A DNA stretch of 37,314 nt. Origin: an uncultured Candidatus Saccharibacteria bacterium. Lineage in GTDB: Bacteria > Patescibacteriota > Saccharimonadia > Saccharimonadales > Saccharimonadaceae. Position 1 is the stretch's first letter, and every line of letters starts with the position of its first letter. Below, piece by piece: positions 6,028-27,934 of the stretch. The translations under genes were made by a program, and so were the position numbers. The notes beneath the pieces are model-generated. The model searched no databases and had not been told where the DNA came from. It saw nothing but the letters and a program-made list of their open reading frames with translations. The DNA is taken from assembly GCA_963532505.1 (NCBI GenBank), contig CAUSLX010000001.1, forward strand, positions 1 to 37,314, in the 5' to 3' direction.

Positions 6028-6088
6028 AAAAATCCTTTCTTTGATTGAGTTAATTTGTTATGTGCCAATTTGTTAACGTGCGGTAATG

Positions 6089-6210
6089 GAGAATCAAAAA
6101 ACGTCTTTGATTCTCGCACTACCAAAGACGTCAAATAAAACTGTTAGTTTCATCCCTCGGTGGCATTTTTATACTTGTTTTACGTTAAGTCGCCACTGTC
6201 TTTGGTAATG
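6089..6210 (-). promoter_or_regulatory. L10 leader (r-protein autoregulatory RNA with attenuator)
   Basis: CCAAAGACAGUGGC...GCCACCGAGG resembles the L10_leader core; followed by terminator ACGUCUUUG-loop-CAAAGACGU plus U tract. Confidence 0.8.
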
Positions 6211-6219
6211 TTCCAGACC

Positions 6220-6248
6220 ATTGTAGCAGAAATGACAACGAAAGACAA
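6220..6248 (-). promoter_or_regulatory. Sigma70-type promoter of rplJL
   Basis: TTGTCT-N17-TACAAT with extended TG. Confidence 0.7.
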
Positions 6249-14012: not shown

Positions 14013-14089
14013 TGGCAGGAGTGGAGGGACTCGAACCCCCGACACCTGGTTTTGGAGACCAGTGCTCTAGCCACCTGAGCTACACTCCT
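14013..14089 (-). tRNA. tRNA-Trp (CCA)
   Basis: AGGAGTG acceptor stem, anticodon loop CTCCAAA, GGTTCGAGTCC, encoded CCA end. Confidence 0.97.
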
Positions 14090-22386: not shown

Positions 22387-22462
22387 TGGAGCCACGATCG
22401 GGGCTTGAACCCGAGACCTCATCCTTACCATGGATGCGCTCTACCAACTGAGCTATCGCGGC
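22387..22462 (-). tRNA. tRNA-Thr (GGT)
   Basis: GCCGCGATAGCTCAGTTGGTAGAGC, anticodon arm CATCC-ATGGTAA-GGATG, CCA end. Confidence 0.97.
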
Positions 22463-22886: not shown

Positions 22887-22971
22887 TGGTGCTGGAAGTA
22901 GGACTCGAACCTACGAAGCCTTACGGCGGGAGATTTACAGTCTCCTGTGATTGCCACTACACGATTCCAGC
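22887..22971 (-). tRNA. tRNA-Tyr (GTA)
   Basis: Anticodon arm GGAGA-CTGTAAA-TCTCC, long variable arm, ACCA end. Confidence 0.96.
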
Positions 22972-22977
22972 GTGATG

Positions 22978-23054
22978 TGGAGCCGCTTCTCGGGCTCGAA
23001 CCGAGGACCTACGGTTTACAAAACCGTTGCTCTAGCCAACTGAGCTAAAGCGGC
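22978..23054 (-). tRNA. tRNA-Thr (TGT)
   Basis: GCCGCTTTAGCTCAG, anticodon arm ACGGT-TTTGTAA-ACCGT, CCA end. Confidence 0.97.
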
Positions 23055-25759: not shown

Positions 25760-26803
25760 CTATTTTCGAAGCCCTACAGCTTTTTGAACGCGATACAAAG
25801 TTTCATTAGCGACGACATTCATGTCTTTTTCACTAGAAGCCAGCTTTTCTTCAATTGCTTGCTCATCAGCCGCCGCAAGCCGATTCTGGAAATTCTCCAA
25901 AAATTCCGCGACTTCGTCAGCCACGATTCGCTTGAAATCACCATAACGATCCATACCGAAGTACTCGTTGGCGGTCTGCTCCAGAGTAACTTCCTTGCCA
26001 GCATCTTGTCGAACCAAAGTCAAAATTTCCAGCAAATTAGAAATTCCCGGTTGATTTTCCTTGTCATATTGAACTTTGCCAATTGAATCTGTTGTTGCAC
26101 TCATTATTTTTTTATGTGCCGATTTTGGATCGTCAGAAAGGAAAATAACTCCCTTACCACTCTCGTCAGATTTGCTCATTTTCTTCGCTGGATTCACGAG
26201 ATCTTTAATCCTCAATCCTTGGCCTTTTCCGAAGAATTGATGCTGCTGAATTACGGGTTTCGGCACGATAAATAGATCGCCAAACTTACGGTTCATTCGC
26301 TCGGCAATATCACGAGTGAGCTCCAAATGCTGAGTCTGGTCGTCGCCAACTGGCACGTAAGTCGCGCCGTAAAGTAGAATGTCGGCAGCCATCAGGACGG
26401 GATAGTTAAATAGTCCGACAGAAGCGTCGCCTTTACTTCCCTTGTCCTTAAACTGTGTCATTCGGCTCATCTCGCCAAATCCAGTAAAGCAATCCAGAAT
26501 CCACGCCAGTTCACTGTGCGCCGGGACGTAGCTTTGGCGGTAAAGATGAACGGAAGGGTTGTCCAGCGGCAATCCGGCGGCAGTATAAATTCGCGCGTTG
26601 TTCAGGGTGCTGTCGTATAGCTTACCGTGGTCGATTGGCGTAGTAAAACTGTGAAGGTCTGGGATGAATAGATTGATATCGTATTCGTCCGAGCGACGTT
26701 TCGCCATGTTGATAATTGGCAAAATAGCCCCAAAGTAATTACCTATGTGGATGTTGTTGTTGGCGCGCACGCCAGTGAGAATGACGGGTTTAGTTGGTTT
26801 CAT
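25760..26803 (-). CDS. trpS: Tryptophan-tRNA ligase
   Basis: HIGN, YPVLMAADIL, VPVGDDQTQH, KMSKS. Start is 26803 or 26812. Confidence 0.98.
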   Translation of the reverse strand: MKPTKPVILTGVRANNNIHIGNYFGAILPIINMAKRRSDEYDINLFIPDLHSFTTPIDHGKLYDSTLNNARIYTAAGLPLDNPSVHLYRQSYVPAHSELAWILDCFTGFGEMSRMTQFKDKGSKGDASVGLFNYPVLMAADILLYGATYVPVGDDQTQHLELTRDIAERMNRKFGDLFIVPKPVIQQHQFFGKGQGLRIKDLVNPAKKMSKSDESGKGVIFLSDDPKSAHKKIMSATTDSIGKVQYDKENQPGISNLLEILTLVRQDAGKEVTLEQTANEYFGMDRYGDFKRIVADEVAEFLENFQNRLAAADEQAIEEKLASSEKDMNVVANETLYRVQKAVGLRK

Positions 26804-26811
26804 TGTATACA

Positions 26812-27519
26812 TTATAGCACTCCTTTGGTTGTTAAGTAACGTAATAAAATGTTCATTGGGTCAATGGTGTTTGGTTTTTCGGCGAAGGCGCAGGATAATT
26901 CGGTGCAGCCTAATAATACTGGCGGACTGCTGGGGTAATTATTGATATAGTTTACTGCGTTCGCCTGCTCGTACTGGGTTGTTATTGGTATTTTATCCAG
27001 CGCCGCCTGAGATATTGTTTGCCCAGAAATTACTGCGCGAATTATCACTTCCAGTGCTTGTTCTTCGTCCTTATCCGGCGTTAATACGGTTACTCCGGCG
27101 GCTTTCAACGGCTTATCATATAGTCCAGTGCGGATGGTTGTCGGCGATGCTAGCAGCCTAATTGTTTTATAATGACGGCTAACATAATCAATTACGGCAT
27201 CTACCATGGAAGTTATGCGAATATTCAGCCGCTGTTCAATATCGGGCTGCAACAAATGCGCAGTATTGCAGGCAATTATGATAACGTCGTCCATCGACGC
27301 GTCAATATTTTTCAGCTCGTTTATGATAATTTCCAAGGCTTCGCTGCGTCGCGATTCGTTGGTGATAAAATCAGGAACCGGCAGCGACAAATGAACTATA
27401 TGCGGAAAATCCATGCCATCCTTTGCGCCGTCTGCCAGCGCCTGCTGAATCATCCGCCGGTGTAGCTCCAAGCTTGCCTGCGGCCCCATGCCGCCGATGA
27501 TAATTATTCTTTGCTTCAT
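26812..27519 (-). CDS. PLP-independent aspartate/glutamate racemase family protein
   Basis: IGGMGP, IACNTAH and LGCTEL (both catalytic Cys present); AAGGAGG RBS. Confidence 0.92.
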   Translation of the reverse strand: MKQRIIIIGGMGPQASLELHRRMIQQALADGAKDGMDFPHIVHLSLPVPDFITNESRRSEALEIIINELKNIDASMDDVIIIACNTAHLLQPDIEQRLNIRITSMVDAVIDYVSRHYKTIRLLASPTTIRTGLYDKPLKAAGVTVLTPDKDEEQALEVIIRAVISGQTISQAALDKIPITTQYEQANAVNYINNYPSSPPVLLGCTELSCAFAEKPNTIDPMNILLRYLTTKGVL

Positions 27520-27540
27520 AATTCCTCCTTTGGGTTATAT

Positions 27541-27563
27541 AAAAAAGACCGCGCGCGGCCTCT
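27541..27563 (-). terminator. Attenuator terminator (3:4 hairpin) in the racemase-trpS leader
   Basis: AGAGGCCG-CGCG-CGGUC followed by UUUUUU, just upstream of the racemase RBS. Confidence 0.75.
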
Positions 27564-27591
27564 AGTCATGGTTGGTATTTTCAGAAGAAAT

Positions 27592-27669
27592 TTACGAACA
27601 ATTCAACAAGCCGCGGCGAAAACGCGTGCTTTGCCAGGCGGTGCTGATGAATTGCCTTTTTATAGTCAT
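27592..27669 (-). CDS. Putative attenuator leader peptide MTIKRQFISTAWQSTRFRRGLLNCS
   Basis: 25-codon ORF starting 6 nt after a TATAAT; single TGG at 27634-27636 inside a hairpin that competes with an antiterminator. Confidence 0.7.
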   Translation of the reverse strand: MTIKRQFISTAWQSTRFRRGLLNCS

Positions 27670-27675
27670 GGGGTG

Positions 27676-27704
27676 ATTATAACGCTAATTGCTAAAATTC
27701 GCAA
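27676..27704 (-). promoter_or_regulatory. Sigma70 promoter of the leader-racemase-trpS unit
   Basis: TTGCGA-N17-TATAAT. Confidence 0.8.
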
Positions 27705-27709
27705 ACGTT

Positions 27710-27934
27710 CTATAAAACAGCTCGCTTGGATATGCGCCAAACCCATAAAATGATGTAAATAGATAAACCGATTGAGAATAAGAGAGATAGGACGGCCATC
27801 GGATTTGCTTTCCATAATATTGTCCATGTTGGCGACGAAATGATAAATTCTACCATCGCTAAGAACCCGATTTTAGTATAAATATGCAGCGATTCAGCCA
27901 GACAAACAGCGAAACCGATTACCATACCGAACAC
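27710..27934 (-). CDS. Small membrane protein or 5'-truncated remnant
   Basis: Hydrophobic 74-aa ORF. The frame continues upstream (EERPPLLNIILLIVAS) to a TAG without a canonical start or RBS. Confidence 0.4.
   Translation of the reverse strand: MFGMVIGFAVCLAESLHIYTKIGFLAMVEFIISSPTWTILWKANPMAVLSLLFSIGLSIYIILWVWRISKRAVL

Follow-up and report, generated by a model that had tools for sequence, protein, structure and literature searches.

A predicted tryptophan-responsive attenuator with a leaderless leader peptide upstream of trpS in Saccharimonadales

The window analyzed here is a stretch of 37,314 nucleotides (nt) from an uncultured Candidatus Saccharibacteria bacterium (GenBank assembly GCA_963532505.1, contig CAUSLX010000001.1), which belongs to a genus whose members are recorded as Candidatus Nanosynbacter, in the order Saccharimonadales, and whose genome (710 kb, 88% complete) is divided into 77 contigs. 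A short element at 27704-27541 precedes, on the same strand, a racemase gene and trpS, the gene for tryptophan--tRNA ligase (TrpRS). This element is most probably a ribosome-mediated transcription attenuator, which would sense charged tRNA-Trp and control the racemase-trpS operon. The reading draws on the anatomy of the locus, its conservation and association with trpS, the retention of its reading frame, start and Trp codon, and the covariation and energetic feasibility of its alternative pairings; from these we infer the stalling of the ribosome at the Trp codon and the direction of the response. Judged from covariance-model matches, the element is not local to the window but belongs to a new RNA family without an Rfam entry, which is widespread in Saccharimonadales and occurs in at least one other order.

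According to the proposed mechanism, a leaderless mRNA would begin at its AUG codon and a 70S ribosome would translate the 25-codon leader while RNA polymerase moves on. With abundant Trp-tRNA, or in the absence of a ribosome, segment 1 of the leader would pair with segment 2, the terminator hairpin (3:4) would form, and transcription would end at the U-run near 27541. A shortage of Trp-tRNA would stall the ribosome with the UGG of codon 12 in its A site, where it would cover segment 1 to about nt 46 and leave segment 2 (nt 51-62) free to pair with the 5' arm and loop of the terminator; with the terminator blocked, polymerase would read into the racemase gene and trpS.

Anatomy and folding of the leader

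All features of the element are read on the minus strand of the window. The promoter scan finds a sigma-70-type promoter (TTGCGA-17 nt-TATAAT, 27704-27676) that matches 10 of the 12 consensus positions. The -35 hexamer TTGCGA (27699-27704) keeps its position in all 27 distinct genus sequences, where the spacing between the two hexamers is 16-18 nt, and the -10 hexamer TATAAT (27676-27681) is retained in the same 27 together with its 6-nt spacing to the start codon. These six nucleotides (CACCCC) separate it from the ATG at 27669, and since the -10 box ends so close to the start codon, the expected transcription start is the A of the AUG or a neighboring nucleotide, which gives what is predicted to be a leaderless mRNA. 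The leader open reading frame (ORF; 27592-27669) consists of 25 codons and a stop, MTIKRQFISTAWQSTRFRRGLLNCS, and is intact in all 29 genus copies, with a length of 24-25 amino acids (aa). Its sole Trp codon, the UGG of codon 12 (W12; 27634-27636), is the proposed sensing position and is invariant in the 29 copies.

Folding assigns most of the ORF to one long hairpin. Segment 1, its 5' arm, corresponds to leader nt 14-42 (27628-27656) and includes the UGG; segment 2, its 3' arm, to nt 47-73 (27597-27623). The intrinsic terminator (27541-27563), recovered by the terminator scan as well as by folding, reads AGAGGCCG-CGCG-CGGUCUUU followed by the remaining U-run; its stem-loop (27563-27544) contains eight pairs, four of them G-C, and a 4-nt loop, and the U-run ends at 27541. 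Three features are defined by the folds in which the start of the leader is masked: the 5' arm of the antiterminator, formed by nt 51-62 of segment 2 (27619-27608); segment 3 (27549-27563), which comprises the terminator 5' arm, its loop and 3 nt of the 3' arm and pairs with segment 2; and the spacer between stop codon and terminator (27564-27591), which forms the inner part of the antiterminator hairpin, is conserved, and shows weak order-wide covariation. A preliminary description of this stretch, made from its letters, had proposed the promoter, the leaderless ORF with a single W12, the three pairings and the terminator at 27704-27541, and scans and folds bear out all of them; the lower stem GGCAAUUCA with UGAAUUGUU lengthens the 1:2 pairing given there into a hairpin spanning codons 5-25.

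In the unconstrained fold (-35.6 kcal/mol) the leader adopts the 1:2 hairpin (nt 14-42 with nt 47-73) inside the ORF, together with the terminator. Masking the first 46-49 nt (UGG plus 13 to 16), as a ribosome with the UGG in its A or P site would do, makes the antiterminator the minimum-energy fold (-25.0 kcal/mol) and removes the terminator, as had been anticipated for folding under a ribosome footprint. The window's 2:3 antiterminator has 12 pairs and one bulged C. The locus thus displays the components by which leader-peptide attenuators are recognized: a short leader ORF with translation signals, a codon that matches the regulated gene (UGG and trpS), an intrinsic terminator placed after the leader ORF and before the first structural gene, and mutually exclusive 1:2, 2:3 and 3:4 pairings in which the codon is placed so that stalling would free segment 2, although for this last feature the control made on the window alone is weak, as described below.

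Two further observations concern the sequence of the leader. A 9-nt direct repeat, CCAUGACUA, is present at the 5' end of the RNA (27660-27669) and again just before the terminator (27563-27572); the CAUG cores of its two copies are able to pair, the repeat drifts independently among relatives, and no role was found for it. A second small ORF, which starts at the CCAUGACUA copy before the terminator and in two contexts ends at the start codon of the downstream gene, was considered and rejected, its frame being broken by 1-nt indels after the U-run (G111, G069 and others; G numbers denote genomes, L numbers loci) and its ATG being changed to ATA in G121 and to GTG in G132. A 240-nt contig from a library labeled RNA-Seq spans the terminator (27364-27602); its RNA origin is a guess, and it was not used as evidence.

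Conservation and covariation among relatives

Within the genus, a BLASTN search against 60 relatives found the element in six genomes, all of the same genus as the window. In two (G029 and G032) the alignment is limited to the block from the -10 box through the U-run (95% identity), both flanks are unrelated, the racemase gene is absent, and trpS follows the element directly. A covariance model (R1) built from ten genus copies (alignment A1) and run over whole genomes gave 29 strong matches (142-180 bits) in 131 genomes of the genus. All 29 elements lie upstream of trpS, 23 with the racemase gene in between and six directly. Four weak R1 matches (20-24.5 bits; G076, G139, G079, G140) were treated as noise; those in G076 and G079 lie about 40 kb from trpS, and the only one inspected (L080) resembles an ordinary terminator. 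In genus relatives that do not carry the element, trpS stands right after TATAAT-N7-ATG, and is thus itself leaderless, or behind another gene. Across 21 genomes the element shows 95.5% identity and the racemase gene 91.2% (87.9% at third codon positions); the element is, on these alignments, better conserved than its neighbor, a sign of selection.

Outside the genus, R1 gave a single weak match among the 151 genomes searched (G273; 27.3 bits, E = 2.6e-4 per genome). It sits between rpsI and trpS and repeats the anatomy of the window: TTGACA-16-TAATGT, 7 nt, ATG, a 24-codon ORF with one Trp codon (W11), a window-like spacer and a terminator. For a wider survey, trpS was located in 282 of 301 genomes of the order, 100 upstream regions were taken from other genera, and a second model (R2) was built from 14 diverged sequences (alignment A2). 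R2 gave 40 matches at E < 1e-4 in 38 of 99 trpS-upstream regions plus the G273 locus, all in the same sense as trpS; region L085 was left out of this search, and a simple scan for an ORF followed by a terminator found nothing there. On the initial 40 regions, that simple scan overlooked members which the covariance model recovered afterwards, and in some genomes a region of 600 nt did not reach far enough; the element of G269, for instance, lies just beyond the stretch taken. Since the upstream sample had been chosen by trpS, R2 was also run over whole genomes, which, given the members overlooked in the regions, provides the better estimate of prevalence: 83 of 151 order genomes, including the unpublished genome G163, carry a match at E <= 1e-3 (91 matches, usually one per genome).

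The position of these matches points to trpS. Among 51 match genomes with a listed trpS position, 50 have the element on the trpS contig and strand, 176-5908 nt upstream, G270 being the sole exception, and 30 of 56 matches there lie at most 700 nt from trpS. In the 30 best loci, trpS is found within 1.5 kb downstream in 24. The other 32 match genomes have no listed trpS position; nine show trpS downstream in the locus, and G195 and G173 do not show it within 1.5 kb. In a phylum sample of 151 genomes, R2 gave four weak matches outside the order. That of G509 encodes ...FSWW..., its two Trp codons being adjacent, and immediately precedes trpS, and those of G529 (...TYWFTH...) and G488 (...FWFTD...) are without trpS within 1.5 kb; the fourth, in G539, contains no Trp codon and is probably false.

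The leader ORF is kept throughout the order, with homologs of 17-31 aa. In the order-wide alignment (A4), UGG stands at the aligned position in 36 of 40 rows, and in all 36 the distance from start to UGG is 27, 30, 33, 36, or 39 nt, always a multiple of three, in a stretch that is otherwise variable in sequence; the preliminary description had named a conserved Trp codon as the mark to look for. The remaining four rows comprise one with Trp elsewhere, one cut by the end of the locus, and two without Trp. The encoded peptides vary widely except around the Trp residue, which lies in [Y/F]-W-F-[T/I] outside the genus and A-W-Q-S inside it. The preliminary description had also put forward the Arg codons of the window peptide as an alternative input; the Arg-rich stretch is confined to the genus and absent from other members, and these codons were rejected as the sensed ones.

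The start signals are conserved as well. In 47 of 59 sequences the start codon follows the end of the -10 box at a distance of 6-8 nt, with 6 nt in all 27 distinct genus copies and exactly 7 nt in 17 order-wide members, so that the leaderless start first read in the window extends to its relatives. In the window genome, ATGs located 6 and 7 nt after a -10-like box open ORFs of at least 100 codons in 36% and 33% of cases, compared with 13-28% at other spacings, which suggests that leaderless starts are common in this organism, probably in several dozen genes of the 710-kb genome. Some genomes carry tandem leader pairs upstream of trpS (G292, L126; G053, L195; G201, L200; G173, L212), and tandem copies are also present in G042, G040, G204, G249, and G192, each copy with its own Trp codon and terminator. 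In three of four pairs inspected the second copy has a clear Shine-Dalgarno sequence (AGGAG, AAGGA, or AAAGAG) 7-9 nt before its ATG, which replaces the leaderless promoter; the signal in G053 is doubtful. Taken from sequence features of this kind, the ORF would act as a translated leader with a Trp codon.

The pairings can be followed across the same alignment. Segment 2 order-wide typically reads xGGCGGUUU, lies inside codons 17-20 and resembles the terminator 3' arm; its sequence complements that of segment 1, where ACCGAC directly follows UGG-UUU, as well as that of the terminator 5' arm and loop. The 1:2 and 3:4 helices taken together are 86.1% paired, against 81.0 +/- 0.6% in shuffles, with a covariation score of 0.199 against 0.116 (0 of 500 shuffles) and ten pairs altered on both sides; these figures are favored by the fitting of A4 to this structure. 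The alignment was not fitted to 2:3, which is 71.3% paired against 67.1 +/- 1.2%, with a covariation score of 0.175 against 0.115 (0 of 500 shuffles). In all such counts, related sequences can exceed shuffles without any structure. The 2:3 core is 83% paired, and 2:3 pairing falls to 29-49% when the partner columns are slid. The terminator helix is 91.7% paired order-wide, and seven of its nine pairs have changed on both sides. One position of the terminator loop, which has no role in forming the terminator, makes a pair with segment 2 that is GC in 10 members, CG in 7, UA in 4, GU in 2 and AU in 1. An extension of 2:3 into the spacer and the 3' portion of the ORF (58.5% against 53.8% paired, 1 of 500 shuffles; covariation 0.18 against 0.136, 4 of 500) has weaker figures and is plausible; if real, it would explain the conservation of the spacer. 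In three of the genomes outside the order (G509, G529, G488) the G+C core of segments 2, 3, and 4 has been replaced together, GGCGG/CCGCC becoming GGGGG/CCCCC, GCGGG/CCCGC, or a GCCGG-type core, and such replacement of whole helices is, at the level of comparison, independent support for the pairings. The stems that the preliminary description expected to covary are therefore kept order-wide in all three pairings, and each of them covaries.

Folding of the individual members extends the comparison. Among 62 distinct members, 51 form the terminator in the free fold and 45 lose it on masking, a loss seen in 7.5% of controls with shuffled spacers. The full off/on behavior is seen in 34 of the 62, namely in 24 of 26 genus members and 10 of 36 elsewhere.

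Weighing the evidence and comparison with known systems

A number of observations weigh against attenuation by a stalled ribosome, or limit how far it can be carried. The fold of the window has a z-score of only -1.55, and 17 of 200 shuffles fold equally well; the G+C-rich terminator of the window is also displaced in 26% of controls in which the intervening RNA was shuffled, because this terminator consists of repeated CG. Taken by itself, the window is no better than chance, so the significance rests on its relatives. Within the genus, however, compensatory double changes are absent from all 42 predicted pairs, and the copies display one-sided, pair-keeping changes, mostly G-U to A-U or G-C to G-U; the genus copies are too alike for pairing to be tested there. 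Among 39 uncut order-wide members, two (G326 and G374) have no Trp codon. Of the 36 order-wide members, 17 keep the terminator as minimum-energy fold even when masked and nine lack it even unmasked; a kinetic, co-transcriptional choice between structures could still serve those that do not switch. A ribosome at the stop codon leaves the core of segment 2 uncovered, and the constrained fold of this state gives a 5-bp 2:3 contact, so termination would then have to rest on fast local re-formation of 1:2. The presence of only one Trp codon may also make for low sensitivity. The link between the genus form and the order family depends on weak scores (R1 27.3 bits; R2 16.2 bits, E = 0.23, for the window element), and homology is therefore likely rather than firm. 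The element is nevertheless the best R2 match in the 37-kb window, aligned end to end with AUG and UGG in register, and its identical anatomy and position indicate at least the same design. Finally, a promoter-like box of trpS itself leaves the attenuator's share of expression uncertain.

Among the alternatives, the block could be an independent small gene or small RNA, with a self-contained promoter, ORF and terminator that yield a small protein or an RNA of about 130 nt acting in trans, and no regulated read-through. The conserved block corresponds exactly to the interval from -10 box to U-run and moves as a unit between contexts, the terminator is already present in most free folds, and trpS has its own promoter-like box, all of which would suit such a gene; trans-acting RNAs derived from attenuators are moreover described in Sinorhizobium, according to the account in PMC6614838, although a function of this kind could be an additional one. 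However, the peptide is poorly conserved order-wide apart from its Trp context, and a small gene explains neither why a segment of the ORF is complementary to, and covaries with, the 5' arm and loop of the terminator nor why the element stands upstream of trpS, on the same strand, in nearly every genome where this could be determined. An independent gene is accordingly judged unlikely.

In arrest peptides of the TnaC type, the Trp residue lies at a fixed distance from a C-terminal Pro next to the stop codon, and an invariant acidic residue stands between the two. The preliminary description had raised an arrest-peptide mechanism. In a reading of this type, the [Y/F]-W-F-[T/I] context, instead of or on top of a lack of Trp-tRNA, would cause the ribosome to arrest, perhaps in response to free tryptophan, and so set the RNA fold. 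The Trp residue does lie nearly always among aromatic residues outside the genus (YWFT, FWFT, SWF, SWW), and peptides of about 20-28 aa with Trp near position 10-13 bear a superficial likeness to TnaC. Across members, however, Trp and stop lie 6 to 17 codons apart and the peptides end in differing residues (S, N, A, K, V, L, Q and others) with no fixed Pro, so that the defining features of TnaC are missing; the window peptide itself has A-W-Q-S and no aromatic context. Conservation after the UGG can be explained at the RNA level, because these nucleotides form segment 1, and induction of trpS by abundant free tryptophan would make less physiological sense than induction by uncharged tRNA. Arrest by the nascent peptide therefore appears decidedly improbable.

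T-boxes are the usual means of trpS control in Firmicutes, and a third possibility is that the leader is not translated at all but binds uncharged tRNA-Trp as a reduced T-box, or else a protein or a ligand, the UGG being read without a ribosome. The T-box (RF00230) would share with the element its input (tRNA-Trp charging), its output (terminator or antiterminator) and its target; trpS is a classic T-box target in Firmicutes, as PMC1262725 also notes. Segment 2 often contains UGGC in A4, which could in principle pair with the 3' end of a tRNA, but this becomes AGGC or GGGC in about ten members. No T-box is matched in the region at E <= 10, and the element, of about 130 nt and with a single UGG in the window, is short for a model of 219 positions whose gathering score is 93 bits and which covers Stem I, with its specifier loop, and the conserved T-box sequence of the antiterminator; the best T-box-like match in the genome lies elsewhere (G000:C15:1362-1485, minus strand) and reaches 25.7 bits over model positions 106-216. 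A T-box senses tRNA by direct binding, whereas the element would do so through a translated codon, and frame-preserving indels, a start codon fixed by the promoter and the Shine-Dalgarno sequences of second copies point to translation. A protein sensor of the Bacillus TRAP type finds no counterpart either, PF02081 being unmatched in the window's 88%-complete genome in a search whose control detected the Bacillus subtilis protein. A sensor that dispenses with translation is thus very improbable.

Attenuation through a stalled ribosome remains the preferred reading, and it places the element beside several known systems. With E. coli trpL (Trp_leader, RF00513) it shares a short leader with a Trp codon, exclusive 1:2, 2:3, and 3:4 hairpins, an intrinsic terminator, and the proposed logic by which stalling leads to 2:3 pairing and read-through. 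Rfam searches nevertheless keep the two apart. At gathering thresholds the window yields nothing at the element and only four tRNAs and the L10 leader; at E <= 10 the interval 27400-27850 gives three chance-level matches, the best known of which is Trp_leader, at 14.5 bits (E = 3.8; gathering score 41) and over the terminator half only. Classical trp leaders carry two adjacent Trp codons, as trpL does, while the element has one, and its start is leaderless where that of trpL has a Shine-Dalgarno sequence. The trpL leader controls biosynthesis genes, and the element would control a tRNA synthetase operon in a genome where TrpA and indole-3-glycerol phosphate synthase (IGPS) genes were not found. 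In E. coli the terminating ribosome covers segment 2; here the stop codon is placed so that it does not. The likeness to trpL drawn in the preliminary description accordingly holds for the three exclusive pairings and fails for the ribosome at the stop codon.

Leader-peptide control of synthetase genes is not new in itself, and an experimental study of a Streptomyces trpS attenuator has reportedly been carried out. For Streptomyces, Seliverstov et al. (2005; PMC1262725) predicted classical attenuators ahead of trpS and leuS. They share with the element the leader-peptide logic, the same gene and an occurrence outside Proteobacteria, but belong to another phylum and are, in the account given there, described with no word on leaderless starts; the two are set apart here by description, not by sequence. 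The same source cites E. coli pheST as a gamma-proteobacterial example of an attenuated aminoacyl-tRNA synthetase operon, which also has a leader-peptide attenuator before the synthetase gene of the sensed amino acid but concerns another amino acid and lineage, and was compared by description only. Leaderless short ORFs encoding polycysteine are described as cysteine-responsive attenuators in mycobacteria (bioRxiv 10.1101/834739); as portrayed in that report, they too are regulatory ORFs at the 5' end of a leaderless mRNA that sense the supply of one amino acid, but they contain runs of Cys codons, whereas the element has one Trp codon and a covarying intrinsic terminator and antiterminator. 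The window peptide has the leaderless start and a single Cys, with no run.

The mechanism is therefore known and classical; new here are the lineage, the RNA family and a form that is leaderless and has a single Trp codon. The novelty suggested by the preliminary description is upheld in these three respects and is curtailed by the Streptomyces predictions (PMC1262725, as reported there). Literature searches found no work on transcription attenuation in Saccharibacteria, although subscription journals were little covered and a prior description is possible; nothing relevant was found on leader peptides, attenuators or tryptophanyl-tRNA synthetase in the Candidate Phyla Radiation, or on leaderless genes in Saccharibacteria that bears on the element. 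To our knowledge, gene regulation is almost uncharted in Saccharibacteria and in the Candidate Phyla Radiation at large. A conserved cis-regulatory RNA without an Rfam family, present in about half of the sampled genomes of an order and tied to one gene, would indicate that these host-dependent bacteria monitor tRNA-Trp charging and respond with more TrpRS and co-transcribed proteins. It would offer a handle on nutrient sensing in an epibiont and a compact example of single-codon, leaderless attenuation; for annotation, a 25-codon ORF and a leader of about 130 nt should be recorded in place of an ordinary intergenic terminator.

Regulated genes and genome context

The first gene under the putative attenuator encodes a member of the Asp/Glu racemase family (26812-27519, minus strand; PF01177; TIGR00035, 101.4 bits against a cut-off of 93.1). 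Its ATG lies 21 bases past the U-run and is preceded by a strong Shine-Dalgarno site, AAAGGAGG. The best NCBIfam matches belong to the "amino acid racemase" subfamily, with cysteate racemase below its cut-off. trpS (25760-26812, minus strand; 350 aa; PF00579; TIGR00233, 294.9 bits against 176.75) follows, its start codon sharing one base with the racemase stop codon, and is itself followed by an RluD-like gene, a holB-like gene and a TPR gene. Homologs of the racemase also lie between leader and trpS in other families of the order (G053, L195; G173, L212; tblastn, 38-49% identity), so the pairing of racemase and trpS is older than the genus.

An extended -10 box, TGTTATAAT, ends 7 nt before the second ATG of trpS, and a Shine-Dalgarno sequence precedes the first (26800-26835, minus strand); genus relatives without the leader have trpS directly behind the same type of box, TGnTATAAT-N7-ATG. 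This arrangement suggests two routes of trpS expression, one basal and leaderless, the other attenuated and led by a Shine-Dalgarno sequence. trpS probably has a basal promoter of its own, and the attenuator would then be an added inducible component, not the sole control.

Genes other than trpS under the leader vary among the genomes compared. In G042 a prephenate dehydratase gene (PF00800, E = 3e-36; L206:1644-2507) directly follows the first leader copy, and in G175 a peptidase M20 gene lies between leader and trpS. The racemase of the window contains no Trp in 235 aa and its TrpRS one in 350 aa. The first sizeable gene after the leader is without Trp in all six cases examined (the window and five other genomes); the five other ORFs (L192:1647-2573, L195:474-1334, L196:413-1480, L200:2031-3134, L212:2025-2912) encode 286-368 aa, two of them are mutually homologous, and none has a Pfam or NCBIfam match. 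As background, 13% of the 208 ORFs of 230-380 aa in the window genome lack Trp, and mean Trp content is 1.0%. First genes free of Trp fit proteins made during Trp shortage, in what was a post hoc check on a small sample.

The absence of hits for TrpA and IGPS in the 88%-complete genome is consistent with Trp auxotrophy; tryptophan is presumably supplied by the host and its shortage met by making more TrpRS. A broader and rather doubtful extension, offered here tentatively, is that the leader marks a phylum-wide Trp-starvation regulon in amino-acid-auxotrophic epibionts, in which the single codon would be sensitized by stalling assisted by the [Y/F]-W-F-T nascent chain and the genes switched on could be translated without Trp. 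The racemase might then salvage D-amino acids, and several of the other genes encode proteins of 290-370 aa. If true, such a regulon would provide a direct molecular readout of how Saccharibacteria sense host supply.

Elsewhere in the window, the one tRNA-Trp (CCA) gene detected in the assembly is located at 14013-14089 (Rfam match 14016-14089), and further tRNA genes occupy 22390-22462, 22890-22971, and 22981-23054 on the minus strand. The ribosomal protein L10 leader (RF00557, 55.3 bits) lies at 6087-6223, also on the minus strand. In many genomes of the genus (for example G003, G150, G029, and G028) the TrpRS match falls into two parts at about residues 110-130, within a continuous open frame of 370-425 aa, which indicates, from the alignments, a protein insertion that the 350-aa TrpRS of the window is without.

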